Shown: positions 2,620 through 20,880, counted from the first letter of the stretch. The stretch is 32,000 bases of DNA from Opitutales bacterium UBA5694 (GCA_002420185.1 DIHO01000019.1:380324-412323); one strand, 5' to 3'. A program made the numbers and translations. The notes: generated from the letters alone by a model not told the origin.

Positions 2620-2837
2620 GATTTATAACTGATCTGAACTATTACCGATTGCCTCGTATAAGTGAGGCTTCCAACGATCTTCAAACTGTCAGGGAACCAT
2701 ATCCCTTGCAATCACACAGTATACCATCGCCACCAGCATGTTGACGAATAACAAGACAAACGACAATTCTCTGCGGATCGGTCCGATAGGGGACAAGGAG
2801 AACCGAGTGAGTTGATCTGTTACTCCGGATGTGTTCA

Positions 2838-4430
2838 TCATTCCATCACATCCTCAAACCAGTTTTCCAACTGGGATTTCAGTTCGCTGACCAATTCCGG
2901 ATACTGGTCTGCCAGATTATTCGTCTCACTTGGATCCTCCTCAATATTATAGAGCTCCGGTGCTCGTGCATCGGATAAGGTCCGCTCCACAGGAGGATTG
3001 GATATTTCCATCTCAAAATGCGGGCGATCGAATAATTCTCGATACGGTGGACCATCACTCTTGAGTTTTATCATGGCCTCAGGAATCCTGGGGTAATACA
3101 GCTTCCATGGACCATTCCGGACGGCTGAATTACAGTGCACCTCTGGATCATAACGATTGAACTGCCAGAATAGTGATCGCACATGATCATCTTGACCGGT
3201 TCGGAAAGAGGAGAGCAGCGATCGGCCGTCCAGTGGCAAAGTGGAAGCGGATTTAATGCCGGCGGCATCTATCAAAGTCGGGCGCCAATCTATGAAATGA
3301 CCAACTGGGTTTAGGGTTTTCCCTCCTTTAAATCCTTTTGGCCAACGAACCAGGCAGGGCACCCGTATTCCCCCCTCCAACACATCCTGTTTCATCCCTC
3401 TTAACGAACCATTGTAGCGGTCCATGTTATACTTCCCCTCGTCGCTGGAGTAATTGCCCAGCAGTGGGCCGTTATCGCTGGTGAAAACCACAATTGTATT
3501 ATACGCCTGGCCCGTTTCCTTGAGAGAATCAAGTACCTTTCCGATCCCAGTATCCATGCTTTCGATCATTGCGTAGAGGGTCGCCACACCCTTGTTGAGC
3601 TTCCCCATCTGCATGTATTTTTCCACCAGTTCCTGCGGTGCTTCCAACGGTGAATGGGGTGAGTTGTAGGACAGGTACAGCAAGAACGGATCCTGCCGTT
3701 TCACGCTAATAAAGCCTACCGCTTCATCCGTAAACATATCCGTCAGGTAGCGCTTATCACTTCTTTCCGAATAACCGTCCCGGTCGAGGATCCAGTTATA
3801 GTAATACATTCCTCCATTGAGAAACCCGAGGAAGTGGTCAAAGCCTCGAGCTATGGGATGGTATCGCATGTCATACAAACCGTTGTGCCATTTCCCGATC
3901 ATTGCCGTGACATATCCGGCTTGATTAAAGTCATCCGCGATCGTGGTCTCCTCTAAGGCGATTCTGTCCAGTCCACGATTGGATTCCACGGAAATGGCAC
4001 CTGTCCGGTGATTATAGCGGCCTGTCAACAGGCCAGCACGTGCAGGTGCACAGAGTGGTGAGGCGGAGTAATGTTGGTTCAGGATAAGGCCTTCTGCCGC
4101 TAGTCTATCCAGATTCGGCGTATTCAGAATAGTATTCCCGTAGCACCCCAAATCCCCGTACCCAAGATCATCTGCAAGGATGAATACGACGTTGGGTTTG
4201 CTGATAACGATATGCGAAAGGTCAGCTTCAGCTTTAAAGCGGATGAATTGGGTTGAATAAACAGCGTGAATAATCGGGCACAGGACTAGAAAGAGGAGAG
4301 AGAAGATGGCGTGTTTGATGGGGTGCATCTGTGGGGTAGTAGTTGAAGAATTTAGCCATCGATGGATGGTGGTGGGCTTTCGCAGATCAAATCTTCTCTG
4401 TGCATCAACTTTAGTGGTCCCAAACCTCAT
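2838..4430 (-). CDS. Arylsulfatase (type I, formylglycine-dependent)
   Basis: Motifs ILADDLGYGDLG, SPLCAPARAGLLTGR (C-x-P-x-R) and GKWHNG. The true start is probably the internal Met at 4328 (MHPIKHAIFSLLFLVLCPIIHA, a signal peptide) rather than 4430. Confidence 0.9.
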   Translation of the reverse strand: MRFGTTKVDAQRRFDLRKPTTIHRWLNSSTTTPQMHPIKHAIFSLLFLVLCPIIHAVYSTQFIRFKAEADLSHIVISKPNVVFILADDLGYGDLGCYGNTILNTPNLDRLAAEGLILNQHYSASPLCAPARAGLLTGRYNHRTGAISVESNRGLDRIALEETTIADDFNQAGYVTAMIGKWHNGLYDMRYHPIARGFDHFLGFLNGGMYYYNWILDRDGYSERSDKRYLTDMFTDEAVGFISVKRQDPFLLYLSYNSPHSPLEAPQELVEKYMQMGKLNKGVATLYAMIESMDTGIGKVLDSLKETGQAYNTIVVFTSDNGPLLGNYSSDEGKYNMDRYNGSLRGMKQDVLEGGIRVPCLVRWPKGFKGGKTLNPVGHFIDWRPTLIDAAGIKSASTLPLDGRSLLSSFRTGQDDHVRSLFWQFNRYDPEVHCNSAVRNGPWKLYYPRIPEAMIKLKSDGPPYRELFDRPHFEMEISNPPVERTLSDARAPELYNIEEDPSETNNLADQYPELVSELKSQLENWFEDVME

Positions 4431-4672
4431 TTACTCGTTACTGCTTTTGACGATCTACAGAAATATGCATAACTAGCTTCGATAGGTAGCCAAACACCTG
4501 CTTTGTTTACAATAAATCTGACTTGGTTAAATTGACAAGCAAATCATTTGTAATAAAGAAACGATTCACAGCCTAGGTAGGGTTGTGGTGTGAAAGGCGG
4601 CTAAAATCGAAACTAGTTACGGCACCCCGGAACTTTCCCCTACACAAATACATCAACTGAAATTTTAATTTA

Positions 4673-5545
4673 ATGAAAAGAACAGCACTTGTCACAGGAT
4701 CCAATCGAGGAATCGGCCTAGCTACTGTCATAAAGCTCGCTTGCCACGGGCTTAAGGTATATGCAGGAATGCGAGATCCGGAGACCAAATCAAAAAACCT
4801 TCTTCGTTCTATCTCAGGCGATGACTTAGACGTGGATGTTGTAGAACTCGATGTTAATCATGAAGCATCCGTCAAACGGTGTTTTGCTTCAATTGAGTCC
4901 TCAGGGGAAAAAGTAGACATCTTAATTAATAATGCTGGAATCGAGAGACGAGGATCGGTTGAAAAATGTCCTATCTCAACTTTCGAGGAAGTAATGAATA
5001 CGAATTATCTGGGACCCATTCGTTGCATTCAGGCAGCTTTACCGAATATGAAAAAAAGTGGTACAGGATTGATAGTAAATATCACTTCTGTAGCGGGCAA
5101 GGTGGCCGCTTCACCGCTTGCACCTTACACAGCATCTAAATTTGCTTTGGAGGCACTCTCAGACTGCCTCGCCCAGGAGGTACTGCCGCATGGCGTCAAA
5201 GTGGCGATAATCGAGCCCGGGATAATCGCGACAGACATGGCTGCTGACATAACCAAGGCAGAATACGATCCTGACTACCCACAGCAAAATAGGATGGCGG
5301 CCATGTTCGTAGAATCTCTCAAAAGCCCAGCATCGACTCAAATTGTAGCTGACGCTATAGTGGAGATCGTGGCTGGTAAAAGGGAAGGTTTACGGCATCC
5401 AGTTGGGCCAGATGCTATCCCGTTTCTTGAATGGAGAGAAAGCAAGTCAGACTCCGAGTGGGCGAATTGGCATAACGTCACTGACGAAGAGTGGTGCGAG
5501 TCGCTGGCAAAAGACTTTGGAATGAGCGTCAAATTAAGTGGCTAG
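4673..5545 (+). CDS. Short-chain dehydrogenase/reductase (SDR) family oxidoreductase
   Basis: N-terminal TGSNRGIGLA (TGxxxGxG dinucleotide-binding motif), NNAG motif, and the catalytic S...YxxxK (YTASK). It ends 40 nt upstream of the TIR gene on the same strand. Confidence 0.85.
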   Translation: MKRTALVTGSNRGIGLATVIKLACHGLKVYAGMRDPETKSKNLLRSISGDDLDVDVVELDVNHEASVKRCFASIESSGEKVDILINNAGIERRGSVEKCPISTFEEVMNTNYLGPIRCIQAALPNMKKSGTGLIVNITSVAGKVAASPLAPYTASKFALEALSDCLAQEVLPHGVKVAIIEPGIIATDMAADITKAEYDPDYPQQNRMAAMFVESLKSPASTQIVADAIVEIVAGKREGLRHPVGPDAIPFLEWRESKSDSEWANWHNVTDEEWCESLAKDFGMSVKLSG

Positions 5546-5585
5546 AATTTTTTATATGAACCCCAAAATGAAACTTTAGATCATC

Positions 5586-7088
5586 ATGAATGACATTTTT
5601 ATTAGTTACGCACACATTGACGACGAGTCCCTTGATGAGCAACAAAAGGGTTGGATCTCAAAATTTCATAGATCGCTTTCAGTCAAGATAGCCCAATTAA
5701 CAGGAGAACCTCCAAAGATTTGGAGAGATCCAAAGTTGCGAGGGAATGATGTGTTTGATCAGGCGATAGTGAATGAATTTAAGAATTCACGCCTGATGAT
5801 TTCGATACTTACTCCGAGATATGTGAAATCTGAATGGTGCCGGAAGGAAATAACTAATTTCTGTCGCAATGCTGAAGATCAAGGAGGACTCAATGTTGAA
5901 GGTAAATCGAGACTTATTAAAGTTATAAAAACCCCTATTGCTGCCCATTCGAGTGACACCCAGCTACCTGGCATTCTAGGGAGTATTTTGGGTTTTGAAT
6001 TCTTCGAGCTTGATCAAGAAACGGGCCGTGTAGTTGAGTTTGATGAGGCCTTTGGACAAAAGGCGAAACAAAGTTATTATTCTCGTATTTACGATTTAGC
6101 TACGGAGGTAGCCGATGTGCTTGTTGCGTTGGATAACGAGAAAGATGGGGATCAGGAATCCGTGATTCCTGCTCCAGATGAGGATAGCCAAATTGTTTTT
6201 TTGTCTTCGGTCACCTCAGACCTCGAGGAATCTCGTCGCAAAATTTCTCGTGAGCTCGTCGCCCGTGGTCATCAGGTAATAGGTTTAGATCCTTTGATTG
6301 CAGCCTCGGAAAATGCTTTGTCTGAAGCCACTGCAAAAATAAGCGAGGCGGATTGCGTGGTACACCTAGTAGGAGAGAAGTACGGCATCGTCCCTGAAGA
6401 TGCACAATGCTCCATACCTGAAATGCAATTGAATGCATCTGCCGAGCGTGCCTCAATCGATCCAAGCTTTAGGAGATTCGTTTGGATGCCAAGATCAGTG
6501 AATCCAACCGATCCCAGGCAAGTTACCTTTCTTCATGGTTTAATGGAGGACCCAAACCGTCAAAAGGGCGCAGAGATGCTTGAGGATACTTTGGATAATT
6601 TTAGAGACTACATTGTAGAAAAACTGCGTGTCCCGATACCCATTAGCACCCCGGCTGAAACGTCAATGCCGGATAGTGACGGAACAAAATCCGTTTACTT
6701 AATATACGACCTTCCAGACGAAGAGAACGTTGCGCCCTTGGAGGACTTCTTGTTTGATAATGGCTTGGAGGTTTTGACGCCAAATTTCGATGGTGATGAG
6801 TCAGAGATAAAGGAATCAAATATCGAAAAGCTCAAATCTTGCGATTCCGTCATGATATATTACGGCCAATGCGCTAAGACATGGGTCGATATGAAGCTCA
6901 TGAGCGTAATGAAAGCTCCCGGATATGGCAGGAAGAAGCCTTTTTCAAGCAAGCTCGTCTTCCTGGCACCGCCTTTTGATAGAAGGAAAATGCGATTCAG
7001 GAGCAACTTGGCTTCGGTAATAACTCAAGCGGACGAAGAATTTTCAGCGAAGGACCTAGAAATCGCTTTAGAAGAGCTAACGAAATAA
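5586..7088 (+). CDS. Triple-module TIR-like protein: N-terminal TIR domain, DUF4062-like module, and a third TIR/DUF4062-like alpha/beta module
   Basis: Module 1 (aa 1-~185) has DIFISYAHID...ISILTPRYVKSEWCRKEI, the classic bacterial TIR signature including the SxWCxxE glutamate (E88, nt 5847-5849). Module 2 (aa ~202-345) has IVFLSSVTSDLEESRRKISRELVARGHQV...ADCVVHLVGEKYG, which matches the DUF4062 pattern. Module 3 (aa ~368-500) has SVYLIYDLPDEE...CDSVMIYYG. Confidence 0.8.
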   Translation: MNDIFISYAHIDDESLDEQQKGWISKFHRSLSVKIAQLTGEPPKIWRDPKLRGNDVFDQAIVNEFKNSRLMISILTPRYVKSEWCRKEITNFCRNAEDQGGLNVEGKSRLIKVIKTPIAAHSSDTQLPGILGSILGFEFFELDQETGRVVEFDEAFGQKAKQSYYSRIYDLATEVADVLVALDNEKDGDQESVIPAPDEDSQIVFLSSVTSDLEESRRKISRELVARGHQVIGLDPLIAASENALSEATAKISEADCVVHLVGEKYGIVPEDAQCSIPEMQLNASAERASIDPSFRRFVWMPRSVNPTDPRQVTFLHGLMEDPNRQKGAEMLEDTLDNFRDYIVEKLRVPIPISTPAETSMPDSDGTKSVYLIYDLPDEENVAPLEDFLFDNGLEVLTPNFDGDESEIKESNIEKLKSCDSVMIYYGQCAKTWVDMKLMSVMKAPGYGRKKPFSSKLVFLAPPFDRRKMRFRSNLASVITQADEEFSAKDLEIALEELTK

Positions 7089-7100
7089 CCCTTCACGATC

Positions 7101-10100
7101 ATGAATAAAGAAGATTCTCAAAACCCTTTCCCTGGTTTGCGCCCTTTTTATTTTGATGATAGCTATCTCTTTTTTGGAAGGGATGCTCAGATAACGGAAC
7201 TTGCTAGTCGATTGCGTAAAAACAAATTCCTGGCTGTTGTTGGAACTTCAGGAAGCGGAAAGTCTTCACTCGTCCGGGCAGGCCTTCTGCCAGAGCTGTT
7301 GAGCGGCACCATGGTTAGTGCGGGTTCGCTTTGGGAAACAGCGATTATGAGACCAGGTGGTGACCCCATAACCAATTTGGCAGAGTCAATCGTACAGGCG
7401 GATCTATATGATCCCGAAGAGGAGGAGATCGTCTCTCAAGTGCGAGCAACCCTTACCAGGAGTGGTCTTGGACTGATAGAAGCCATCAGACAGTGCGACA
7501 TAGAGGAGGGCTCAAATCTTCTTATCGTCGTCGATCAATTTGAGGAGATTTTTCGGTTTAGGGGTAGCGATGACGCTAGTGACGAACAGGCGGCTTTTTT
7601 CGTAAATCTTCTGCTCGAGGCAACAGAACAAAGTGAGCTCCCAATCTATGTCATTATAACGATGCGATCAGATTTCTTGGGGGATTGTAGCCGATTTCCG
7701 AGACTGGCTAATTCTGTCAACGAGGGCGAATTTCTAATACCACGTTTAAATCGGGATCAGAGAAAAGAAGCGATAGAGGGTCCTATAAGAGTAGCAGGAG
7801 GAGAAGTATCCCAGCCTCTCCTGAACCGACTTCTCAATGATATTGGAGACGATCCAGATCAATTGCCCATATTGCAGCATGCCCTTATGCGAACTTGGGG
7901 ATATTGGGCAAAACATAGTGATCGTGATTCTATTGACTTGGATGATTACAGGGCGACCGGCGGCATGACAGAAGCTCTGTCACGTCACGCAAATGAGGTC
8001 TACGCTGCTCTACCAAGCGATGGTCACAGAAAAATAGCGGAAAAGGTTTTTAAGAATCTAACGGAAAAGATTGATCAAGGACGGGGAATTCGAAGGCCTA
8101 TGCCTTTTGGAGAGCTCCTTGAAATTGTCCAATGTGCTGAGGAGGATCTACGTTTAGTCGTAAACGAGTTTCGTGCCGCAGGTAGAACTTTTTTAATGCC
8201 AGCCCCGACGAGGAAAATTGATTTGTCTACCGTAATAGACATTTCGCACGAAAGCCTCATGCGAGTGTGGACTCGTCTCAAGGACTGGGTAGACGATGAA
8301 TCACAGTCGGCAAGGATTTACAGGCGTTTGGCTGACACAGCACAACTTTTTGAAGAAGGAAAAGCGGGCTATTATCGAGATCCGGATCTTCAGATCGCTA
8401 TGTCTTGGAAAGAAGAGGCACAACCGAATCACCTGTGGGCAGATAGGTACTATGAGGGATTCGACAGAGCAATGCAGTTCCTCGACAAAAGCTATGAGGT
8501 CACTAGGCAGGAAGAGATTGATAAAGAGAACGCAAGAATTCGCGAATTAGAATCTGCTAAGGCATTGGCGGCAGAGCAGGAAAAGAGAGCAGCCATTGAA
8601 AAAAGAAGTGCAAAAAGACTCAGAGTTTTGTCAGCTGGACTGGCATTGGCGGGCATTGCCTCTCTCGTTTTCTTAGCGTTTGCAATCAATTCAAAAAACG
8701 AAGTTAGCAATAAGATAAATGAGTTAGCGTCACGAAGTTTTCTTAGGGGACAAGAACTTGAAAAAAGCAAAGACGGTCTCAAGGCCTTGCCTTGGTACCT
8801 CGATGCAGTTGATCTGTCTAAAGGTAATGAATCGCTCAATGCAAAATATTTAAATGCTCTTTCAAATAAGCTTTCTAGTAATTTTATCCTAGAAAAAGGA
8901 ATAAATGTAAAAGACGTCTCGGAGTTGATCATCTCTGAAGACGGAAAGCTACTCGTGATAAATACAAACGCTGGTTTGTTTGGCGCGGAAAACAAGGTCC
9001 ACGTTTACTCATGGCCAGATCTGAGAGAAGTCTGCGAGTTGAAAATCGATGGAGTGATTTTTAAAACCAAGATTTCCCCAGATGGAGGTCATATATTCTC
9101 ATGCTCAAATATTGAATCAAAAGTTTGGAGTGTTTCGGCTGATTCTAAGACTGTTTTTCAAAAACCCTATTTTGGCAGCTTTTCATTCAATCCAAAAAAT
9201 GAAGGTGGATATCATTTGTTTGGATCCTCAGAAGGATTATCTAGAATTGAGAGGGACTTTAGCCAAGAGTCAGTCGTCCATAGCAGGAGAGTTGCTTCAA
9301 CGGCTATATCACCAAACGGGAATCATTATATTTCAATTGAAGAACTAGACCGCGAAACCACTGGTAGCGTGCCAAGTGCAGTCTTCAGAAGGCGATTATT
9401 TAGGTCAGGAGGAGTGCCCTCAAAAATAGTCAGTTTCAGTATTAAAAATGATTCCTTCGAACAAGATTTTGAGAGCGAGTTTGAAGGTTTCATCAGTCAA
9501 ATTATTTTTCCTGATGACTCGCCTGAAGGAATAGCGTTTTTCTCGGCTAGCCAATCTTCTAAACGCTTCACGCAGGTGAACTTCTCAATAGGCGAAGTTT
9601 CTAACGCGGCTCTACTAGATTTCGGTGGTGTGGATCCAGGAGAGCTTCAGATAAAATCAGGAGGTGATAAAGTTCTAGTCGCATCGAGTGTTGGCTCATT
9701 GCAAATACTCGAGAAGCAGCCAACTGGTTGGGAATTAGTTCAAAATTTTCCCCTCAGCGAGAATAGCCCCTCCGATATTAGTAGTAATGGATTGGACGTC
9801 CTGACGTCCAACTCAAATGGATCAATACAATTGTTGTCGGCAATTTCTGGAGATCAATTTGCCGACTCCTTGTATGGGAAAGTGGCGATTAAGGACGCGA
9901 TCTTCGGGCCATCTGATGATAAGGTCATTGTAGCACTTGAGAATGGTGAAGTTAAAGTTTTTTCTATACCCATCGGTAAAGTACGAGTTACTGGAACACC
10001 GTACCAATCTTCCGTCAGCGGTGGGAGGGGTCCTTGGCTAGCCGTCGATGGAATTGTACAATCGACTCGTTCTCCACGAACTCGATCTTCAGATGACTTT

Positions 10101-11975
10101 GAACCGACCTCCATGTCGACGGAGCTCGGAGACGCAAATCCGATGTGGCGTCTAAATTTTGACAGGGTAAGCAAGGTAACTGATGCGAAGATTTGGAATC
10201 GTCCCTCCGCGGGCGTAACCCCAAATCCAAATGATATGTTCATACGACGGCTTAAAAATTTTAAAGTGTCTTTAAAGTTGGATGGCGAGACCGTTTGGGA
10301 AAAATTGTTTCTCCACAAGAAAAGTGATAGTCCCCCATATCCTTACCATGAGGTGGAGTTTGATGACGGAGTGATGGCCGACTGTTTCGAAATAACCATA
10401 ACCGATGTAAACGAAAACAATGAAAAGATCCTCTCTCTTTCTGAGGTCGAAGTTTTTGCTATTTCTGAAAATAAAAATGTCAAATTCGGTGAAGATCTAT
10501 CTCAATATGTAAGGGAAGTCTCTAGTCATGAGTTACTTGCAGACGGAAGAGTCGTTTTATCGAGTTCTAGCATAGAAGCGAAATCATTCGCAAGTTACAC
10601 TAGCAAAGGGGGCGAAGAAGAAAGAATTCTTTCGAAATTTTTAAAAGCTTACGATTCACAAAACTGGACCCTTTGTGTACGGTATTTTTCACAACTTGGC
10701 CTAAATCGGGAAAATTCTGAAGTGGTCCGTAAAGCTATTATCTGCTATAGGAGCTTAGGTTCGTTCGAGGATTCCCAAAAGCTCCTAGCTAATTACTTAA
10801 GTAGTAGTTCACCAGATTATAAATTCATCGTGAATGAATTGTGTAACTTAGATCAATTTGGTTTGGACGTTGGGAGCCTTGTTACAAAGGTGTTATCTAC
10901 GGAGTCGTTTTACCAAGATAAATTAGCGTGCAAAAGCATGAGCCTATTTTTGGTTTCTAGCGACAAATACCAGCTAAGCCAGAGATTACACGATTGGTTG
11001 GAGGATGAATACAACAGAAGAGATTCATACGCTACATTGAGGCCTTCCGAGAATTATGATCTGGAAAACGGAATTACAATTGAAGGCTGGTTTAGATATG
11101 ATGCGCGTGGTTTTTACAGTTGGGCCCCTCGACTTATCAACAAATTCGGCCAAGGAGGCTCCGATGGGTACTGCCTGACTGTTGCTGGCTCCGGAAAAGT
11201 GCTTTTTGAGCTCAATAACAGCAGCACGGGTGAAGCAGCCTACCATTCTGTCGATTCACCCGAATCTGGACAGTGGTTTCATTTAGCAGCAACTTGGGAT
11301 ATACAAACTAAACAAATGCGTATGTACATCGACGGTGTCGAGAAAGGTGATCCATTAGAGTTTCAAGGTCCGATTGGCCTTACAAGCGTACCTCTCGGTT
11401 TCGCAACAAACAATCTAAGAGCGACCCGCATAGATGCCTCATATTCCGAAATAAGGATCTGGAATTACGCAAGAAGTAGTGAACAAATTAGAGAAAATAA
11501 AAACAAGCGGTTAGATGCTGAGCTAGACGGACTTGCTTTTTACGGATCTTTTTCTGATGAAAACGAGATCAGAAAGTTGCCGTGGAGTAAAATTGTGAAT
11601 CCATCAATTCAATCCACCAAGCAGCTCCCTTTCGGAAGTGAAACAGATTATCTCGCTCTTACCGAATCCAATAGTTTTACGGAGAACTTATGGTTGGATT
11701 TGATTCTCGCAGAAAGCTACTTTCAGCGAGATGAAATGAGCGAAGCATTAAACATTCTGACAGCTTCAGATTTTAGATTTAGCAGCCGAGTTTACAATCC
11801 AGCTAGATTAGGGTTAATATCTAAATATCTTACTTTCATAGACGACGGAAATGAGGTATTCCGGGAAAGGATGAGCAGCTTGTTGCAGCAGGGCATAACT
11901 GAAATGAACAAACCCTCCGAAGGGATGCTCCCGTCTTGGGTACCACAAGTGAGAAAGTTAATACAGCCTTTTTAA
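7101..11975 (+). CDS. Transmembrane STAND NTPase (nSTAND-type P-loop) with a beta-propeller-like, discoidin-like, helical-repeat and LamG C-terminal region
   Basis: The N-terminus is NPFPGLRPFYFDDSYLFFGRD...FLAVVGTSGSGKSSLVRAGLLPEL (Walker A). It also has LLIVVDQFEEIF (Walker B), ITMRSDF, LPILQHALMRTW and ISHESLMRVW, the signature of the nSTAND/WD40-associated NTPase family. A coiled coil spans aa ~465-508. A TM helix VLSAGLALAGIASLVFLAFAI (aa 509-529) is preceded by KRSAKRLR. Degenerate WD40-like repeats cover aa ~600-960. A discoidin/F5-8-C-like region covers aa ~975-1122 (MWRLNF...KVSLKLDGETVWE...LSLSEVEVFA). A LamG domain covers aa ~1315-1465 (ITIEGWFRY...GQWFHLAATWD...MRMYIDGVE...IRIWNYARS). 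Confidence 0.85.
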   Translation: MNKEDSQNPFPGLRPFYFDDSYLFFGRDAQITELASRLRKNKFLAVVGTSGSGKSSLVRAGLLPELLSGTMVSAGSLWETAIMRPGGDPITNLAESIVQADLYDPEEEEIVSQVRATLTRSGLGLIEAIRQCDIEEGSNLLIVVDQFEEIFRFRGSDDASDEQAAFFVNLLLEATEQSELPIYVIITMRSDFLGDCSRFPRLANSVNEGEFLIPRLNRDQRKEAIEGPIRVAGGEVSQPLLNRLLNDIGDDPDQLPILQHALMRTWGYWAKHSDRDSIDLDDYRATGGMTEALSRHANEVYAALPSDGHRKIAEKVFKNLTEKIDQGRGIRRPMPFGELLEIVQCAEEDLRLVVNEFRAAGRTFLMPAPTRKIDLSTVIDISHESLMRVWTRLKDWVDDESQSARIYRRLADTAQLFEEGKAGYYRDPDLQIAMSWKEEAQPNHLWADRYYEGFDRAMQFLDKSYEVTRQEEIDKENARIRELESAKALAAEQEKRAAIEKRSAKRLRVLSAGLALAGIASLVFLAFAINSKNEVSNKINELASRSFLRGQELEKSKDGLKALPWYLDAVDLSKGNESLNAKYLNALSNKLSSNFILEKGINVKDVSELIISEDGKLLVINTNAGLFGAENKVHVYSWPDLREVCELKIDGVIFKTKISPDGGHIFSCSNIESKVWSVSADSKTVFQKPYFGSFSFNPKNEGGYHLFGSSEGLSRIERDFSQESVVHSRRVASTAISPNGNHYISIEELDRETTGSVPSAVFRRRLFRSGGVPSKIVSFSIKNDSFEQDFESEFEGFISQIIFPDDSPEGIAFFSASQSSKRFTQVNFSIGEVSNAALLDFGGVDPGELQIKSGGDKVLVASSVGSLQILEKQPTGWELVQNFPLSENSPSDISSNGLDVLTSNSNGSIQLLSAISGDQFADSLYGKVAIKDAIFGPSDDKVIVALENGEVKVFSIPIGKVRVTGTPYQSSVSGGRGPWLAVDGIVQSTRSPRTRSSDDFEPTSMSTELGDANPMWRLNFDRVSKVTDAKIWNRPSAGVTPNPNDMFIRRLKNFKVSLKLDGETVWEKLFLHKKSDSPPYPYHEVEFDDGVMADCFEITITDVNENNEKILSLSEVEVFAISENKNVKFGEDLSQYVREVSSHELLADGRVVLSSSSIEAKSFASYTSKGGEEERILSKFLKAYDSQNWTLCVRYFSQLGLNRENSEVVRKAIICYRSLGSFEDSQKLLANYLSSSSPDYKFIVNELCNLDQFGLDVGSLVTKVLSTESFYQDKLACKSMSLFLVSSDKYQLSQRLHDWLEDEYNRRDSYATLRPSENYDLENGITIEGWFRYDARGFYSWAPRLINKFGQGGSDGYCLTVAGSGKVLFELNNSSTGEAAYHSVDSPESGQWFHLAATWDIQTKQMRMYIDGVEKGDPLEFQGPIGLTSVPLGFATNNLRATRIDASYSEIRIWNYARSSEQIRENKNKRLDAELDGLAFYGSFSDENEIRKLPWSKIVNPSIQSTKQLPFGSETDYLALTESNSFTENLWLDLILAESYFQRDEMSEALNILTASDFRFSSRVYNPARLGLISKYLTFIDDGNEVFRERMSSLLQQGITEMNKPSEGMLPSWVPQVRKLIQPF
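7242..7265 (+). other. Walker A / P-loop (GTSGSGKS) of the STAND NTPase
   Basis: aa 48-55 of the 7101..11975 ORF. Walker B hhhhDQFEE is at aa 140-149 (nt 7518-7547). Confidence 0.85.
8625..8687 (+). other. Single predicted transmembrane helix inside the STAND protein
   Basis: 21 uninterrupted hydrophobic/small residues (VLSAGLALAGIASLVFLAFAI) with a basic cluster (KRSAKRLR) on the N-terminal side. By the positive-inside rule the NTPase sits in the cytoplasm and the ~1090-aa C-terminal region sits outside. Confidence 0.6.
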
Positions 11976-12005
11976 TCATTTTTTTGGAATAAAATGAAAA
12001 TCACG

Positions 12006-12020
12006 GGCCTATCTTAGGCC
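12006..12020 (+). other. Intercistronic stem-loop (GGCCTA-tct-TAGGCC)
   Basis: Perfect 6-bp inverted repeat with a 3-nt loop, between the STAND stop (11975) and the next start (12028). No U-tract follows, so it is not a canonical terminator. Confidence 0.35.
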
Positions 12021-12027
12021 AGTAAAT

Positions 12028-13716
12028 ATGGGTTCATCTCCAGTTAGATTTGCGATAGTTTCTTTAGGTTTATTGGCCCTTTACCTTGGTTGGATCGGTG
12101 CTAACAGCTTATCGGCAGATGATTCCTTCTTAGATTCTTTGTATAAAGCAGTGAAGTTATTCGTGCTTGAGGATTCAGGTATGTTTCGACTCGAGCATCC
12201 CGTAACCCTCGAAATTGCCCGTTGGTTGGCCCCTATGACAACGATTTCTAGCATTTTTGCCGCTGCTAGCACTTATCTTAGGCAGTTATCGGATTTCATC
12301 AGGCTCGTGTTCTGTAGTGATCATACTATAGTCCTTGGAGCTAGTGCCGAGGCCTTGCACCTAATTGCAGACTTAAGTGCATCCAAGACTGGGAAAATCG
12401 TTGTGATTGAAAAAAACGCGAACGCTCCGAACCTGCAGGAATTAAAAAAGTATCGGTCTCTCGTAATCATAGGAGATTTCGAATCTAGGGCTAACTTAGA
12501 AAAAGCAAGAGTATATAAAGCAAAATCTGTAATTAGCCTCACTAGCAAAAACGAAAAAAATCTTTCTGTTATACTGCGGGCAAGTCAGCTGATTCCTGAT
12601 CAAAGGTTCGATAATCCGGTAAAGTTTTATCTGCCAATAAAAGGCTTTTTTCACACAGAATCTCTACAGAGCAGTGGAATTTGTGATTATCCAAGTGCAA
12701 GGAAGAAAAAAATCATAGTAGTCAACCTAGTTAGAAATCGTGCTCGATGTTTATTCTCAAAACATCCAATCGAGCTTGATCGATTAGGAAAAGTAAAGGA
12801 GCCAATTGTCATTTTTGATACCTACAATGATCTCGTTCAGGCTTTTATAGTACATACTGCTGAGGTTGGTCATTACCCTAATAACGTTAAGGCAACTATT
12901 TATATCGTAAGTCCTGACGCCGAAATAAAAGTTGAGAAATTAGCCTATCATTTTCCAGCCGTGAGAGATTGTGTTAATCTTCAAAGCGTGTCGCTCAAAA
13001 GCGGTGACGATGCGGTAGACACTATCGCGGAACTAATCGAGAGCAAGCAGGGCAATTACAATAAATCAGTATTCTTAATGGAATCTTCGCCTCCGTCAGA
13101 AATGATCGAGGCAATAAGAATCAAGGAGAAAATCACGATCGATGCCTCAGTCACATTTGTGATACCTGAGTTAGATAATGGATTACTACCAAAGGGCATC
13201 GATTGTATAAAGAGTGTTGAGACTTTAAAGGATAGCTTGAGCGGTGCAGCAGTCTTTATGGCTTCTTTAGAAGATTCGGCGAAAAAACTGCACGAGGCAT
13301 GGTATAATCAAAATGACATGCTAATTAAGGCCGCAGAGACCGAGGGTATGGTTGATAAGGCTTCAGCACTGAAAAGCAAACCAGCGTTTCTGCCCTGGGA
13401 GGACCTTAGTGATGAACAGAGGAAGCCAAGCATTTCTCTAGCTGATCATGCAGAGATAAAGAGGCGATTCATTATGTCCGCAATGGGAAAGAAAGAAGGT
13501 AGCTCCATCGACGCTAAGTTGATAGATGAAAGCGTGATGGATGCACTTTGCCGGATGGAGCACAACAGATGGATGTCAACCTTAAGGATGATGGGATGGA
13601 ATTATGGCTCGAAACGGAATGACGATAAGAAAATACACAACAATTTGGTCCCATATGACGAGCTTGATGCCGATGCGAAATCCTTCGACAAGACTATGAT
13701 CGAAAATTTGCATTAG
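12028..13716 (+). CDS. Membrane protein with a 2-TM channel-like core, a TrkA-N (RCK-type Rossmann) domain and C-terminal RyR-domain repeats
   Basis: TM1 is FAIVSLGLLALYLGWIGA. A pore-helix-like segment DSLYKAVKLFVLEDSG follows, with no TVGYG filter. TM2 is LEIARWLAPMTTISSIFAAA. The Rossmann region is HTIVLGASAEALHLIADL...KIVVIEKN...LVIIGDFES...AKSVISLT. Two C-terminal RyR-like repeats are present (KKLHEAWYNQ...PWEDLSDEQRKPSISLADH and CRMEHNRWMSTLRMMGWNYG...HNNLVPYDELDADAKSFDK). Confidence 0.75.
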   Translation: MGSSPVRFAIVSLGLLALYLGWIGANSLSADDSFLDSLYKAVKLFVLEDSGMFRLEHPVTLEIARWLAPMTTISSIFAAASTYLRQLSDFIRLVFCSDHTIVLGASAEALHLIADLSASKTGKIVVIEKNANAPNLQELKKYRSLVIIGDFESRANLEKARVYKAKSVISLTSKNEKNLSVILRASQLIPDQRFDNPVKFYLPIKGFFHTESLQSSGICDYPSARKKKIIVVNLVRNRARCLFSKHPIELDRLGKVKEPIVIFDTYNDLVQAFIVHTAEVGHYPNNVKATIYIVSPDAEIKVEKLAYHFPAVRDCVNLQSVSLKSGDDAVDTIAELIESKQGNYNKSVFLMESSPPSEMIEAIRIKEKITIDASVTFVIPELDNGLLPKGIDCIKSVETLKDSLSGAAVFMASLEDSAKKLHEAWYNQNDMLIKAAETEGMVDKASALKSKPAFLPWEDLSDEQRKPSISLADHAEIKRRFIMSAMGKKEGSSIDAKLIDESVMDALCRMEHNRWMSTLRMMGWNYGSKRNDDKKIHNNLVPYDELDADAKSFDKTMIENLH

Positions 13717-14170
13717 AAAATTGAGTCACTTGGTGCTTTTTGGCCGTCGAAAAGTTTAAAGAGTTAAAAAGTATATAGGTACTAGGAGTGTGACTTAGGG
13801 TTTAGCAGTGGATCAGTGTGAGACCTTAAAAAATGGATACAAGAAAGCAAACAGAGCTTCAGTTAAGGGTACATCCCGTTTATCTACGTAAATAGAATAA
13901 GTTGGGTGCTTGGCACTCCAACTGGTTTTAACTTTGCATAGCCCGGGGGAGGATATAATCGAATAACTATTAGAGCGATAGAGCTTTTGCGTCGTAACGT
14001 TAATCGAGCCGAGATCATAGAATCACTTTTGAAGGCAATCTGGGCGATTTCAATGCGATTACTGATGTACCGGTAGTAGCGGTAGGGCATTGTGCGATCT
14101 TGCCGACTGGTCTCGACTATAGACCCTTTCGCATTCTTACTAAGGAAGGTGTCATGCTGTGACAAGGGAT

Positions 14171-15595
14171 TTAAGCCCAAACGCTATGAAACCGTGCCAT
14201 GGATGCATCTCGAATTAAAGCCTGGCCAAAGGCAAACGCTCCCGGTGTTGTGACCATCAGTTGTGGGCAGATGATCATGTAAGCCTTTTCACTGGGATAG
14301 AAGAAGCCTTGTGTCAGTGCATAGCCGCCCCAGTGACTCATGTCTTGATGGTCACTGACCTGATAACCGCAGAGTGAATTTTGATCTGCGTGGGAGGTCG
14401 CCCAGCCGAAATGAAATGACTTGGGAAAAGGGCTGTGTTGGCCAGCTACTCCAAACGCCTTTGCCAATGGGGTATCTAGTCTCAGATCTTGGAAGCGACC
14501 TTTGCATAGCGTGTGCACGCCCTGCGGACTGATAAGCCGCTGACCGCTTTCCGTGATCCCTCCTCGCAAAAGCATATCATAAAACTTTGAGTAGTCGGAG
14601 GCGGTCATGAGTGATCCTGTGTCTCCTGTTTCGAAGCTCCTTGGCCCGCGGTAGTGGGCCGTCTGGTTGGTCAAACGGAAAGGGCCTTCCGGATAACAAT
14701 CTTTCTCTTCTGCAACCATGGTCTTCGTACCATCGGTGGAAAGCTTCGCTCCATAAAGGGTGGGGATCCGATCGATTCTCGGATCACCGTCACCGAGGAA
14801 AAAGGCTGCATCGTTCATTTCTAGTGGATCAAACAGAAGTTCAGACATGATTTCAGAAAACTTTTGAGGCTTTCCCCGAGACGTCTCATACAGTACTTCG
14901 ATCAAGCGGCTGAGAACGGTTGCACCATGACCGTAAGAAAACTCTCCCGGTTCGCAGGTGAGAACTCCTGCCTCGCCGATCGTGTTGACGAATTGCTCCA
15001 AGGTTAAATCTGCGCCCAAAATGTTGGTGCTTCGATAAACGTCTGGATGAATTTTCTGTCGAAGGCCACTAGCGATCAGCCCTGATTTTCGATCACATAG
15101 TCCACCACCCAAAAAAGAATCGTATTCCCCAAAAAGGTCATACTCAATGCCAGCTGATTCACTCATCAAGTGCTTGATCTGCATTTTTTCGGAGGTCGTT
15201 TTCCGATCGAATTTCAGATCAAGCTTCTCTCCGGTTAAGAAGCTGGAGTATTTCAAGGATTCGGGTCCATCGTCAGATTCAACAACGACTTCCCAGTCAC
15301 GATCGAATGAAGGAATGTATTGGCCAACCTCATCCTCAAAGTCAAACAGGCCTTCCTCGTACAGCCGTAATGCGACGAAGCTCGTCAGCACTTTGGTCAT
15401 ACTGAACATGCGAAACATCGCATCGCAGGACATGGGTTTGTTGGTTGCTAGATCGCTTACGCCAAAAGCTTTGTGATAGGTGTCGTTTCCGCATTTCGCA
15501 AAAACCACCAGCCCGGGCACTGACAGCCGTTCATCGCAAAGAAGATCAGAGAAGTGCACATCCAACAGAGATTCATAATCAGGTTTAAATTTCAT
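14171..15595 (-). CDS. Serine hydrolase, beta-lactamase/esterase (class C-like) family
   Basis: 474-aa ORF with the S-x-x-K nucleophile motif (FSMTKV) in the expected N-terminal context (FRMFSMTKVLTSFVALRLYEEG). Length and overall pattern fit the transpeptidase-fold esterase/PBP4-like family. Confidence 0.75.
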   Translation of the reverse strand: MKFKPDYESLLDVHFSDLLCDERLSVPGLVVFAKCGNDTYHKAFGVSDLATNKPMSCDAMFRMFSMTKVLTSFVALRLYEEGLFDFEDEVGQYIPSFDRDWEVVVESDDGPESLKYSSFLTGEKLDLKFDRKTTSEKMQIKHLMSESAGIEYDLFGEYDSFLGGGLCDRKSGLIASGLRQKIHPDVYRSTNILGADLTLEQFVNTIGEAGVLTCEPGEFSYGHGATVLSRLIEVLYETSRGKPQKFSEIMSELLFDPLEMNDAAFFLGDGDPRIDRIPTLYGAKLSTDGTKTMVAEEKDCYPEGPFRLTNQTAHYRGPRSFETGDTGSLMTASDYSKFYDMLLRGGITESGQRLISPQGVHTLCKGRFQDLRLDTPLAKAFGVAGQHSPFPKSFHFGWATSHADQNSLCGYQVSDHQDMSHWGGYALTQGFFYPSEKAYMIICPQLMVTTPGAFAFGQALIRDASMARFHSVWA

Positions 15596-18129: not shown

Positions 18130-20880
18130 TTAGTTTGAGGCGGGGACATCGCGTTTCAGGTTCTTTTTCCGCTGGCTGTTCTGGGGCTTGGATTTGAGTT
18201 CGCCGCCGGGGTGGGCGTTACTTTGGTCCTGACGTATCCATTGCGGCGGCATCATGCGCCGGCTCCAGGTTTGGTAGCGGGCTTTCATTTCTCGGAAAAC
18301 GCTTGGATACTGAGCGGAGAGGTTGGCACTCTCTTGGGGATCCTCCTTTAGATTGAACAAGACCTGACCTCCCGTCCGCTCGTTGATCAGTTTCCAGTCG
18401 CCCATGCGTAGGGCGTGTTTTGAGCCGGAGCGCCAAAAGAGCTCTTCGTGTGGGACTTTGCTTTGCTCGCCTTTGATGAAAGGGAGCAGGTCGACGCCAT
18501 CTATTGCGGTCGCTGTCGTGTCCAATAGCCCGGCCGCTGATAGTGCGGTGGCGTGACAATCGAATCCCATAACGGGATTTTCGTAGAGGCTGCCGGCTGG
18601 TATCGCGTCTGGCCATTGGAAGAGGAAGGGAACGCGAATGCCGCCTTCGTATAAGGTGCCCTTCATGCCGCGGAAGGGATAGTTTTGCGAGGCATTTAGA
18701 GGAGGGATGCCCCCGTTGTCGCTGTAGAACATGATCAGGGTATTCTCGGTAAGATTCAGAGTTTTAAGCGTATCCAAAATAACGCCTACAGCGTCATCCA
18801 TGGCGGAGAGCATCCCGGCCATCACCTTTCGCTTTCTATCTTTTATATTCGGAAAACGTTTCAGATATTTGTCCGTGGCCTCCATCGGTGTGTGCACGGC
18901 ATTGAAGGCGAGATAGAGAAAAAAGGGGTCGTTTCGGTTTTGCTTGATGAAATTAGAGGATTCCTCGGAGAAGGCGTCCGTGAGGTAAGCGGGCTCTTTT
19001 GCGACGCGGATTCCATTGCGGTAAAGCAGGTCTCCATTTTTGGTTTTGGGGTAGTAGCTTCTGGCTCCGCTGTGGAAGACGTAAGTGAAGTCGAAGCCGC
19101 GTTCATGCGGTCGCAGGCCTTCTCGAAATCCAATGTGCCACTTGCCGATCATACCCGTCGCATAACCGACGCCTTTCAGCTTTTCCGAAAGTAGGGGAAT
19201 GCGTCGAGGGACGCCGAAGTTAGCCGCGGCATAGCGCTCCGGACCAGAATTGCGCTCGAATCCGAAACGATGCTGGTACATGCCGGCCATCAGGCCCGCT
19301 CGGGAAGGGGAGCACACGGGGTGGTTCGCGTATCCATGGGTGAAGCGCACGCCATTGGTGGCAATCGAATCGATCCGCGGAGTGGGTACGTCTTGACAAC
19401 CGTTGACGCCCACATCGGCGTAGCCCAAATCGTCGGCGAGTATGAGGATGATGTTCGGTAGACCGCCGGAAGCTTCGACGAGCTTAGTCTGTTTGCCATG
19501 GACATTGGCTGAAGCGGCGACTGGAGAAGCTTTTGCGGTAGAGCTGTGTGTCGAATTCGCTGAAACGGCGTAGATCCATCCGGTGTCATGACTAGGCATT
19601 CCATTGCATTCACCACCTCCGAGGTAAAGTATGTTGTCTTCGCCTTCGAAGGGCGACCGAACGATTGTTCGAACGGCACCGCTGGTCCCTTTGCCAGCGG
19701 CTTCGAAGGACCGTACGGTGTAGACGGGCTTTCTATTTTTTAGGGAGCGGATGAGGAGATTGCGTTCTGAGGCGAAGTAGCGGATCGGTCGTCGTCCGTC
19801 GTCCCGGATGCGGATGTTGCGTTCTTCCATGCCCCCGTTCTCGGCATAGTTCTTGTCGTAGCTACACTGAAATCCGATGTACCAACGGTCTTGCCCATCC
19901 GGGCCTATATCATGCACAATTTTATTGTAGCCTGCCAAGGAACCGTCGATGGGCAGATTCCATTCCTTGGCTAGAAACGCCGCTATATCTAATTCTTTCT
20001 TAATCACGTTGTTCCGGTTCGGGTCGAGCATTTTAGCGACGCCGGTGGTAATGAAGAGCAAGGCTTCTTTGTTGCCGGAAGGGGCGGGTACTGTAACCAA
20101 TCCGCGGATACCGCCGCCTGAGGTCATTCTCGCGTTGTGGTAGACGGACTTCCATTTCGGTTTTTTCCCATCCTCGCGTACCCAGATGTCTTTGGTCGAG
20201 GAGGCGTAGAGTTTGCCGTTGCAGACCGCGTATTCCATGAAGCGCTGCCCCTTTGGTAGGATGAGTTCCGGCTTGCGGCTCCACACCAATTTGCCCTCGG
20301 CGTCAGCGTCGTAGGTGGCGGTGAGAATTCCGAGCGAGGCTTCGGCGTTTTTAGTGCCGCTTACTCCGGCAAAGACCATGTCAGTGCCGGTCACCGTATC
20401 CCGGTGAAATCCCATGCCGCGAACTTGGGAGGTGGTTCTACTTTTTCCCAATGGGAATTCCAGCCAGTCGTCGTTTTCGTCCTGGCGGGCCCAGATCGAT
20501 ACGACGCCTCTTCGGGAAAGCGGGGCTGCGAGCAGGATCGTCACAGGTTCAATCGGCTCGCCTCGATGATCGGATCTGAATTCGAATGACTGTAAAGCGG
20601 TCATTCGCGTGTGGTTCGCGATCATATCCAGATCGACTTTCCAATCCGAATCCTTCGACTCCTTCATTAGGACTTGGCAGCCGCCGAGAGAGCGGTCTGT
20701 TTCCATCCATAGGCTGGTGGCGGCGAAGAGCTTTCCCTGGTGACTAGCGAGCTTTAAAATCTCGGTCCCGCTCATGCGTTTACCGTTTTCATCGGAAGCG
20801 CCCGCGGTCCAGGAAGTGGTAGCGTCGATTGCGTTGGAAAAGACGAAGAGGGTGAGAAGGAGGCAAAGCGTTTGTTTCAT
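18130..20880 (-). CDS. Secreted two-part protein: unassigned ~470-aa N-terminal domain fused to a type I sulfatase domain
   Basis: Signal peptide MKQTLCLLLTLFVFSNAIDA. The C-terminal half has ILADDLGYADVG, HPVCSPSRAGLMAG (C-x-P-x-R), GKWHIG and SDNGG. The N-terminal half has no motif I can name. Confidence 0.85.
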   Translation of the reverse strand: MKQTLCLLLTLFVFSNAIDATTSWTAGASDENGKRMSGTEILKLASHQGKLFAATSLWMETDRSLGGCQVLMKESKDSDWKVDLDMIANHTRMTALQSFEFRSDHRGEPIEPVTILLAAPLSRRGVVSIWARQDENDDWLEFPLGKSRTTSQVRGMGFHRDTVTGTDMVFAGVSGTKNAEASLGILTATYDADAEGKLVWSRKPELILPKGQRFMEYAVCNGKLYASSTKDIWVREDGKKPKWKSVYHNARMTSGGGIRGLVTVPAPSGNKEALLFITTGVAKMLDPNRNNVIKKELDIAAFLAKEWNLPIDGSLAGYNKIVHDIGPDGQDRWYIGFQCSYDKNYAENGGMEERNIRIRDDGRRPIRYFASERNLLIRSLKNRKPVYTVRSFEAAGKGTSGAVRTIVRSPFEGEDNILYLGGGECNGMPSHDTGWIYAVSANSTHSSTAKASPVAASANVHGKQTKLVEASGGLPNIILILADDLGYADVGVNGCQDVPTPRIDSIATNGVRFTHGYANHPVCSPSRAGLMAGMYQHRFGFERNSGPERYAAANFGVPRRIPLLSEKLKGVGYATGMIGKWHIGFREGLRPHERGFDFTYVFHSGARSYYPKTKNGDLLYRNGIRVAKEPAYLTDAFSEESSNFIKQNRNDPFFLYLAFNAVHTPMEATDKYLKRFPNIKDRKRKVMAGMLSAMDDAVGVILDTLKTLNLTENTLIMFYSDNGGIPPLNASQNYPFRGMKGTLYEGGIRVPFLFQWPDAIPAGSLYENPVMGFDCHATALSAAGLLDTTATAIDGVDLLPFIKGEQSKVPHEELFWRSGSKHALRMGDWKLINERTGGQVLFNLKEDPQESANLSAQYPSVFREMKARYQTWSRRMMPPQWIRQDQSNAHPGGELKSKPQNSQRKKNLKRDVPASN

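Follow-up and report, generated by a model that had tools for sequence, protein, structure and literature searches.

Bacterial defence systems that pair a nucleotide signal with a membrane effector are already known, and include CBASS and Pycsar, with their transmembrane (TM) effectors, and type III CRISPR systems, with their membrane effectors. In Thoeris (ThsB and ThsA), an NAD+-derived signal made by a TIR protein is read by a sensor that is fused to a killing module. The nSTAND1 systems (Kaur et al. 2020) and the DUF4062 systems Swarozyc, Vulcan and Vesta combine NTPase and NADase domains and have been described as self-contained NAD+ depleters. Here we analyse, in a 32,000-nucleotide stretch of DNA from Opitutales bacterium UBA5694 (GCA_002420185.1 DIHO01000019.1:380324-412323; the whole stretch is called the window below), the last gene of an operon that also encodes a TIR-DUF4062 protein and an nSTAND1 NTPase. 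Its 562-residue product joins a predicted pore-like module of two TM helices (2TM) to tandem RCK/Rossmann domains and a C-terminal, R12-like RyR module of two repeats. The original prediction for this gene, made from the DNA sequence, was a channel-like membrane protein that could be opened by a cyclic ADP-ribose (cADPR)-type nucleotide from the TIR protein or by a shift between NAD+ and NADH. Our analysis suggests that the protein may be a signal-gated membrane effector with the RyR module as its sensor.

The Opitutales operon has features of both kinds of NADase system. As in STAND conflict systems, an nSTAND1 NTPase with a sensor region is present, with TIR_2 and DUF4062 domains in the adjoining gene, but the operon adds an RyR/RCK membrane protein to this NTPase and NADase pair. 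As in Thoeris, a TIR enzyme gene (TIR_2, E = 2.6e-14) shares an operon with a separate candidate effector gene, and we propose that the two systems also share the logic of signal and sensor-fused effector that is common to CBASS, Pycsar and type III CRISPR membrane effectors; a failure of the membrane would be the outcome. By contrast with Thoeris, the sensor would be an RyR/R12 module rather than a SLOG or Macro domain, the killing module would be derived from a K+ channel and carry an RCK ring, and the TIR domain is joined to DUF4062 under a separate STAND NTPase; the Opitutales protein matches no ThsA model.

Its membrane and RCK parts are closest to those of described ion channels. GsuK (the multi-ligand-gated K+ channel of Geobacter sulfurreducens; PDB 4gx0, 4gx1, 4gx2 and 4gx5), MthK and Slo1/BK likewise have RCK domains after a pore of two or more TM helices, and GsuK also has tandem RCK/Rossmann domains in one chain with the pore, whereas TrkA is a tandem RCK ring without a pore in the same chain. 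Unlike GsuK and the other RCK channels, the Opitutales protein lacks the TVGYG filter and an Ion_trans_2 match, its glycine loops are degenerate, a two-repeat RyR module is added at the C terminus, and its context is TIR/STAND rather than ion homeostasis. For the RyR module, the closest described proteins are RyDEP and RyR Tad, which have the PF02026 fold and the H-x2-W/H/D pocket spacing in common with it. These are small, soluble, homodimeric anti-defence proteins of phages, whereas the Opitutales protein is encoded by the host, has two repeats per chain, of which only one has the complete pocket, and is joined to a membrane/RCK module. Eukaryotic RyR shares only R12, a domain that binds adenine nucleotides: its repeat is homologous, but its pore (6TM, in a giant protein) is unrelated and its organism and role are different. 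TRPM2 is a cation channel with an ADP-ribose (ADPR)-binding domain (SLOG-like MHR1/2 and NUDT9H), and its pore is likewise unrelated. Judged by its sequence, the Opitutales protein is a member of the RyR-repeat family that resembles both an RCK-gated channel and a Thoeris-type effector without belonging to either group.

Genomic association with TIR and DUF4062 genes

When 1.84 billion representative proteins (50% identity clusters) were searched with the family profile, at least 2,691 clusters matched at E < 1e-30, and most of the best 150 are 530–630 residues long and matched end to end. To sample loci, we searched for the motif [TQS][LY]E[IL]AR[WF]LAP, taken from a six-sequence alignment, in a single genome of each GTDB species. 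The search retrieved 41 loci, in ten phyla or more; the 39 independent loci lie in Verrucomicrobiota, Desulfovibrionaceae, Calditrichaceae, Gammaproteobacteria, Chlorobiota, Chloroflexi, Ignavibacteriota, Actinomycetota and other taxa. The closest GTDB homologue of the Opitutales protein (26% identity) is in a Verrucomicrobiaceae metagenome-assembled genome (locus L010). Open reading frames (ORFs) were called in all loci, and TIR and DUF4062 genes were found with multi-seed profiles whose representatives were verified against Pfam. Use of a search motif biases the locus sample, but this bias should not favour TIR genes.

In 14 of the 39 loci, the ORF closest to the family gene was a TIR or DUF4062 gene; such a gene lay within two ORFs in 18 loci and anywhere in the fetched flanks in 21. 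TIR or DUF4062 genes accounted for 21 of 133 ORFs at rank 1–2 and, from rank 4 outwards, for 2 of 251 (odds ratio 23, Fisher P = 9e-9), and the same-strand gaps to them were often 3–64 bp. When Pfam families were tallied over two ORFs on either side, TIR_2 (12) and AAA_16 (11) led, accompanied by DUF4062, TPR and WD40 families. According to Pfam, the TIR partners occur as TIR alone, TIR-NACHT-TPR, TIR-nSTAND1, TIR-NB-ARC, TIR-Lcl_C and TIR-Kelch, and the DUF4062 partners as DUF4062-STAND-TPR, DUF4062-STAND-WD40 and DUF4062-TPR. The contigs of three distant relatives carry DUF4062-STAND-TPR, TIR-Kelch, TIR and SLOG (LSDAT_prok) neighbours, and the arrangement of the window itself, TIR-DUF4062, STAND and 2TM-RCK-RyR genes, is kept in L007 and L008. 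These data indicate that the family is very likely linked in function to TIR/DUF4062 systems, in line with the association with TIR and STAND genes elsewhere that the original prediction expected.

A putative ligand pocket in the RyR module

We modelled the protein with AlphaFold2 from an alignment of 86 full-length relatives (mean predicted local distance difference test score (pLDDT) 92.4, predicted TM-score (pTM) 0.88); residue counts below refer to these relatives. The C-terminal module (residues 412–561) is all-helical in this model. Pfam RyR (PF02026) matches residues 501–559 with E = 2.7e-13 and 50.4 bits against a cutoff of 27.4, and a fragment with repeat 1 alone stayed below threshold (E = 0.03). 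At the level of the family, repeat 1 aligned with repeat 2 in hhalign at a probability of 97.5% (E = 7.8e-12), and we therefore regard both of the repeats named in the original prediction as real. Repeat 2 matches the repeat domains of RyR1–3 in the PDB as well as 3nrt and 6uag, bacterial chains labelled ‘putative ryanodine receptor’, the family profile matches RyR2 at E = 4e-40, and many phage proteins with an RyR domain can be superposed on the C-terminal ~150 residues, over 145–163 columns. Repeat 1 retains H422, W425 (Tyr in most relatives) and W457 (86/86) and has no counterparts to the His and Asp of repeat 2.

Phage RyR/R12 domains bind 2'cADPR, 3'cADPR and cADPR at nanomolar affinity (PMC13232231; 10.64898/2026.06.04.730250). 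RyDEP, from mycobacteriophage DyoEdafos, is a glycosidase with 2'cADPR and 3'cADPR as its substrates, and its relatives are nanomolar sponges; it contacts its ligand through H75, W78, H100 and D117, of which H75/D117 are the catalytic pair, and ADPR sits in the pocket after cleavage (PMC13232231). RyR Tad (gp68 of Pectobacterium phage CB1) binds 3'cADPR, 2'cADPR and cADPR via H129/W132, H154/K147 and K170/D171 (10.64898/2026.06.04.730250). The spacing of H512, W515, H537 and D554 in repeat 2 of the Opitutales protein (+3, +25 and +42) is that of H75/W78/H100/D117 in RyDEP and of H129/W132/H154/D171 in RyR Tad, and R530 lies at the position of K147 in RyR Tad. Among the relatives, E511 is conserved in 86/86, H512 in 85/86, R514 in 82/86, W515 in 83/86 and D554 in 73/86. 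The residue pattern makes the RyR domain a credible receptor for cADPR-type molecules, and we consider it somewhat probable that the domain forms a nucleotide pocket.

The RyR domain also occurs in other proteins encoded at the related loci (Table 1). Stand-alone host RyR proteins of 166–168 residues are encoded beside the channel-like gene and TIR genes in L031 and L042, and elsewhere the domain is fused to RelA_SpoT, TPR, SLOG, NUDIX and AAA-type ATPase modules. SLOG and NUDIX are ADPR-related domains, and a small domain that is found on several unrelated output modules, among ADPR-related domains, shows the pattern of established second-messenger sensors. From this distribution, RyR seems to serve bacterial conflict systems as a portable domain for sensing nucleotides. 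In size, the stand-alone host proteins are close to the phage cADPR sponges, and they could be host-side signal buffers. A tblastn search against plasmids gave one partial, RyR-only match, on an Arcobacter plasmid.

Predicted pore and RCK domains

TM1 is the sole segment of the protein with a Kyte-Doolittle hydrophobicity above 1.6, TM2 being weakly hydrophobic, and the charge distribution read from the sequence is that expected for a topology with both termini inside, as in K+ channels. Y39, L44 and F45 in the pore-helix-like segment and L61, A64, R65 and P69 at the start of TM2 are each more than 90% conserved, a pattern that points to strong constraint on the N-terminal segment. In Foldseek searches of the PDB, the full model matched GsuK first (E = 1.5e-9, up to 523 columns), followed by TrkA, Slo1/BK and MthK, with E-values for GsuK, TrkA, Slo1 and MthK from 1e-9 to 1e-5; the top GsuK matches include entries deposited with NAD and with ADP bound. 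For a model of the isolated 98-residue fragment (residues 1–98, pLDDT 74), all 50 best PDB matches were tetrameric P-loop cation channels, among them MthK, KcsA, NaK, Slo2.2 and ionotropic glutamate receptors, over 80–114 columns and with query-normalised TM-scores of 0.31–0.60 (0.42–0.60 for K+/NaK-type channels).

Profile alignment gave the same layout. The family profile aligned with MthK in hhalign (probability 96%, E = 1.5e-9) colinearly through TM1, pore helix, filter, TM2 and RCK, which sets the family pattern S..D..Y..LQLF.LESG on MthK SWTVSLYWTFVTIATVGYGD and the VLEDSG of the Opitutales protein (V46–G51) on MthK TVGYGD. A K+ filter signature of the TVGYG type was found in the pore loop of none of the 155 family proteins retrieved, and there were no filter-retaining intermediates. 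Across the family, the filter-equivalent motif is LESG in 36/124 proteins, LQSG in 11/124 and one of many others in the rest. The LES resembles the TLESW filter of bacterial sodium channels, a likeness that we take as a lead. The original prediction had described an MthK/Kch-type layout with a replaced K+ filter, and had named a pore-like fold of the N-terminal helices as a check in advance. The replaced filter and the order of TM1, short helix, loop, TM2 and Rossmann domain were both recovered, and in the predicted fold the fragment and the full model match P-loop and RCK channels; the comparison with MthK and Kch needs amending, as the second RCK domain makes GsuK, Slo and TrkA the closest structures.

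Of the two Rossmann domains, where the original prediction had named one, the first matches Pfam TrkA_N at residues 101–192 (E = 4.8e-11; 43 bits, with the cutoff at 23.8), and the second, as a segment on its own, matched no Pfam family. Loop 1 reads H99-T-I-V-L-G104-A-S106-A-E-A109 and is degenerate, as originally predicted, with E128 at the end of beta-2 retained; loop 2 reads T265-Y-N-D-L-V270 and has lost GxGxxG. In the relatives, by contrast, the glycine columns hold Gly in 86/86, 79/86 and 81/86 sequences in domain 1 and in 81/86, 71/86 and 70/86 in domain 2, and the acidic residue after strand 2 is present in 85/86. The domain-1 substitutions are common to only 3–4 of the 86, and both glycine-rich loops are lost in the window lineage and in its 90–93% identical relatives (P0001–P0004), in which the RyR pocket is kept; the degeneracy is a lineage-specific loss. 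Because both loops are degenerate, NAD(H) gating through the RCK domains is unlikely in this orthologue, and the NAD+/NADH shift of the original prediction is unlikely with it.

Model and alternatives

From the domain architecture, predicted fold, pocket-residue conservation and genomic linkage, all obtained with computational tools, we infer a signalling direction, a ligand, a tetrameric assembly and ion conduction as follows. The STAND NTPase would sense a trigger and activate the TIR-DUF4062 NADase protein, and an NAD+-derived product, either a cADPR isomer or ADPR, would bind the H512/W515/H537/D554 pocket of RyR repeat 2. The protein would be a tetramer like GsuK/BK-type channels, with a K+-channel-derived P-loop pore and its acidic, non-K+ LEDSG loop above a ring of eight RCK domains, and with four R12-type RyR domains below the ring. 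The RCK ring would relay the change to the inner helices, and the resulting cation flow would depolarise the membrane and end in growth arrest or death, an abortive-infection outcome. Experiments have shown DUF4062 of anti-phage systems to be an NADase (10.64898/2026.05.01.722283; 10.64898/2026.09.04.749371), and its products are ADPR and nicotinamide, not cyclic signals (10.64898/2026.05.01.722283). Since DUF4062 yields ADPR, and since ADPR occupies the RyDEP pocket after cleavage, ADPR is no less plausible a ligand than a cyclic isomer. We advance the whole chain, in which the Opitutales protein is the signal-gated membrane effector of a three-gene TIR/STAND conflict operon, probably an anti-phage one, as a tentative proposal that falls just short of an even call. 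Whether the N-terminal module permeabilises the membrane we see as evenly balanced, and a true selective channel is less likely than that.

Several observations weigh against this model. The pore assignment rests on the predicted fold, and sequence models do not recognise the N terminus as a channel: Ion_trans_2 (Pfam) was matched neither by the Opitutales protein (E ≤ 0.01) nor by the N termini of 40 relatives (E ≤ 10), a search of PDB sequences with the N-terminal profile gave no match at E ≤ 10, and NCBIfam gave only weak TrkA/Kch fragments well under the cutoffs. The Foldseek E-values of the isolated fragment were non-significant (0.05–0.8). When the N terminus alone was aligned with hhalign, MthK was matched at E = 0.019, with the register unchanged, and KcsA was not matched; this weak score implies that much of the score of the full alignment with MthK stems from the RCK domain. 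The variability of the filter-equivalent motif makes a defined selectivity filter doubtful. In the pocket, the phosphate-contacting His is present in only 34/86 relatives and is otherwise Ser or Thr. About 40% of the sampled loci are without a detectable NADase neighbour, several have housekeeping neighbours, one has a Schlafen/HATPase/MarR protein as neighbour, and in Frankia (L041, L044 and L047) a PP2C/SpoIIE-type phosphatase gene precedes the homologue, overlapping or abutting it, and neither TIR nor DUF4062 genes were detected there. It is possible that the Frankia homologues are a sub-clade with a different regulatory input. Moreover, TIR-STAND or DUF4062-STAND proteins can kill by NAD+ depletion alone, and a second effector is not required.

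The points that concern the N terminus could be explained if the protein were a ligand-triggered membrane disruptor and not a true channel, with its two TM helices perturbing the bilayer upon higher-order oligomerisation driven by the ligand, a mechanism put forward for the 2TM effectors that CBASS, Pycsar and type II Thoeris employ, and with its K+-channel appearance being a remnant. Such a disruptor would fit the absence of recognition by sequence models, the variable filter-like loop and the weakly hydrophobic TM2, and the genomic logic would be equal to that of the gated pore. However, the fold and the colinear pore-RCK-RCK layout specifically match gated tetrameric channels, and the residues of the pore helix and the start of TM2 are among the most conserved of the protein, suggesting a precise structure, so that we rate a disruptor as fairly unlikely. 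Another possible explanation is that the protein terminates or buffers the signal: the RyR module would hydrolyse cADPR isomers, as RyDEP does, or sequester them, the 2TM-RCK part would serve as an anchor or regulator, and the module would thereby set a threshold and shield the cell from leaky TIR activity. The catalytic pair H75/D117 of RyDEP is indeed kept as H512/D554 (85/86 and 73/86 relatives), the phage RyR proteins are sponges or a glycosidase, and small stand-alone host RyR proteins exist in L031 and L042. Against such a role, only one of nine phage homologues (RyDEP and eight others) was catalytic despite the conserved residues (PMC13232231), a buffer needs neither a conserved P-loop-like module (Y39, L44, F45, R65 and P69, each above 90%) nor tandem RCK domains, and the RyR fusions to RelA_SpoT and AAA modules fit a sensor better. 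We consider a terminator or buffer, with the threshold that it would set, unlikely.

The Rossmann domains invite a third account, in which the RCK domains hold NAD+ at rest, its consumption by the NADases switches the channel and the RyR module is accessory. Most relatives keep GxGxxG and the acidic residue in both Rossmann domains, GsuK, the closest solved structure, has been deposited with NAD and ADP on its RCK domains, and the ADPR and nicotinamide made by DUF4062 are not cyclic (10.64898/2026.05.01.722283). The Opitutales protein, however, has lost both glycine loops and kept the RyR pocket, so that depletion sensing cannot be the main route in this protein; as an account of it we find this quite improbable, although the route may operate in other, canonical members of the family. 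A housekeeping ion-transport protein that lies beside TIR/STAND genes by chance is, in our estimate, very improbable. TrkA_N/RCK proteins are common in K+ homeostasis, and the weak TrkA/Kch-like NCBIfam matches, the housekeeping neighbours at several loci and the ordinary chromosomal content of the rest of the window are in keeping with this. On the other side stand the finding that, in many phyla, TIR/DUF4062 genes are enriched 23-fold in the positions closest to the gene, the tight same-strand spacing, the absence of a K+ filter from all 155 family members and the co-occurrence with other RyR-fused conflict-type proteins. It is the statistics of the neighbouring genes (odds ratio 23, P = 9e-9) that lead us to reject a housekeeping K+ channel.

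The signal-gated membrane effector is accordingly the model that we carry forward. Of the pairing between a cADPR-type signal and an RyR membrane protein that was originally predicted, the genomic linkage and the pocket residues have held up, and the channel half has gone unrecognised by channel sequence models.

The operon and its surroundings

On one strand, a short-chain dehydrogenase/reductase gene, the TIR-DUF4062 gene, the nSTAND1 gene and, at the end, the 2TM-RCK-RyR gene follow one another with gaps of 40, 12 and 52 bp, respectively, and a convergent gene on the other strand follows directly downstream (Table 1). Pfam bore out the upstream same-strand TIR (with DUF4062) and nSTAND1 genes that had been called from the sequence. 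The TIR-DUF4062 protein has an N-terminal TIR_2 domain at residues 4–96, with a WCxxE motif at residues 84–88, and DUF4062 at residues 204–280 (E = 5.1e-12). Its C-terminal ~150 residues matched no Pfam family (best E = 0.09); by eye they show a beta-alpha pattern, and a third domain, TIR-like or flavodoxin-like, could be conceived of there. The nSTAND1 protein has its NTPase at residues 9–420 (E = 7e-98) and Laminin_G_3 at residues 1308–1463 (E = 1.2e-21), with weak beta-propeller-like and F5/8-type-C-like matches in the C-terminal region. Right after the NTPase module lies its single strongly hydrophobic segment (RLRVLSAGLALAGIASLVFLAFAINSK), a predicted TM helix, on account of which the ~1,090 C-terminal residues would be outside the cytoplasm. 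This layout, unusual among STAND sensors, hints at an extracytoplasmic trigger. In PADLOC, the ThsB model matched the TIR protein marginally (E = 0.0024); no PADLOC model matched the 2TM-RCK-RyR protein, and the partners matched marginally.

Table 1 Positions of the features discussed, in the window or, where a locus handle is given, in a related locus
Feature	Position	Strand	Basis
2TM-RCK-RyR gene, ATG to stop, 562 residues; 2TM pore-like module, tandem RCK/Rossmann, two-repeat RyR (R12-like)	12028-13716	+	
TM1, equivalent of channel outer helix, residues 4-28	12037-12111	+	AlphaFold2 helix; aligned to MthK TM1
Pore-helix-like short helix, residues 34-46	12127-12165	+	AlphaFold2; hhalign sets SFLDSLY on MthK SWTVSLY
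Filter-equivalent loop, residues 47-58, L-E-D-S-G-M-F-R-L-E-H-P, no TVGYG	12166-12201	+	
TM2, inner-helix equivalent, residues 59-94, opening with the family signature LE.AR[FW]LAP	12202-12309	+	AlphaFold2
RCK1/TrkA_N Rossmann domain, residues ~97-250	12316-12777	+	Pfam TrkA_N; column counts
Glycine loop 1, degenerate	12337-12354		
Second Rossmann/RCK-like domain, residues ~255-400	12790-13227	+	AlphaFold2 alternating strand/helix; tandem-RCK structural matches
Glycine loop 2, GxGxxG lost	12820-12837		
RyR repeat 1, divergent, residues ~412-486	13261-13485	+	Pfam E = 0.03; hhalign to repeat 2
RyR repeat 2, canonical, residues ~497-562; E511, H512, R514, W515, R530, H537, D554	13516-13713	+	Pfam; PDB matches
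Partner gene 1, TIR_2 and DUF4062, 500 residues	5586-7088	+	Pfam
C-terminal region of partner gene 1, residues ~350-500	6633-7085		
Partner gene 2, nSTAND1 NTPase, 1624 residues	7101-11975	+	Pfam
Hydrophobic segment of partner gene 2, residues 506-532	~8616-8696		
Short-chain dehydrogenase/reductase	4673-5545	same as TIR gene	
Inverted repeat, 6 bp	12006-12020		
Two sulfatases and BNR/sialidase-like protein with Laminin_G_3	748-4430, 18130-20880		
Stand-alone RyR protein	L031:6176-6676	+	
Stand-alone RyR protein	L042:9375-9881	+	
RelA_SpoT-TPR-RyR	L013:14972-17518	-	related-locus neighbourhood
RelA_SpoT-TPR-RyR and SLOG (LSDAT_prok)	L040:3921-6443	-	related-locus neighbourhood
NUDIX-RelA_SpoT-SLOG-RyR	L042:6044-9133	-	related-locus neighbourhood
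AAA-type ATPase-RyR	L020:1199-3904	-	related-locus neighbourhood
AAA-type ATPase-RyR	L028:6627-9332	+	related-locus neighbourhood

The dehydrogenase gene is syntenic in the close relative L007 and may belong to the operon, as an NAD(P)-dependent enzyme beside NADases. A scan of positions 4300-14400 gave counts of sigma-70 promoters and intrinsic terminators no higher than those in shuffled controls. In the 52-bp gap between the STAND and 2TM-RCK-RyR genes there is a 6-bp inverted repeat (GGCCTAAGATAGGCC), which the terminator scan flags on the minus strand only. The G+C content is 0.40–0.44 across 8–13 kb, that is, the distal part of the STAND gene and the 2TM-RCK-RyR gene, as against ~0.44–0.55 in the flanks, and this dip is compatible with horizontal acquisition of the operon. 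The remaining genes of the window are those of an ordinary chromosome and encode, among others, SmpB, a SpoU methylase, a HemN-like radical SAM enzyme and sulfatases. The operon is flanked by two sulfatases and by a BNR/sialidase-like protein that carries Laminin_G_3; gene content of this sulfatase/sialidase-like kind is typical for marine polysaccharide degraders, for example, Verrucomicrobiota and Planctomycetota.

Discussion

Immunity through a nucleotide signal and a membrane effector is an established principle, and it is the proposed sensor domain and effector module of the Opitutales protein that are both new to it. In the searchable literature, which leaves most subscription journals outside, no paper contained both ‘RyR domain’ and ‘TrkA-N’, and we found none in which a host 2TM-RCK-RyR protein with a link to TIR systems had been described. 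The STAND surveys of Kaur 2020 and Kaur 2021 make no mention of RyR, TrkA or ion channels, and the DUF4062 preprints (10.64898/2026.05.01.722283; 10.64898/2026.09.04.749371) make none of RyR or channels. The RyR preprints treat only phage proteins and animal RyRs (PMC13232231; 10.64898/2026.06.04.730250).

A wider scenario, which we regard as speculative and rather doubtful, can be drawn from the model. In it, the family would be a widespread one of bacterial cation channels gated by cADPR or ADPR via R12, which would read what TIR or DUF4062 NADases produce, the pairing of a nucleotide with an RyR channel would have arisen in prokaryotic immunity, the phage RyR sponges and glycosidases would be captured copies of host receptors, and the R12 of animal RyR would descend from such sensors. 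We know of no proof that cADPR acts on animal RyR through R12.

If the signal-gated effector model is correct, it would give a host-side function to bacterial RyR domains, which were long a curiosity and whose phage versions emerged in 2026 as binders of cADPR isomers. R12 would then be a new sensor, and a K+-channel-derived pore with an RCK ring a new type of effector, in nucleotide-signalling immunity. Many TIR-STAND and DUF4062-STAND proteins that have been assumed to be pure NAD+ depleters would also signal to a second effector, and the family would offer a small, tractable bacterial model for the disputed action of cADPR on ryanodine receptors via their R12 repeats.

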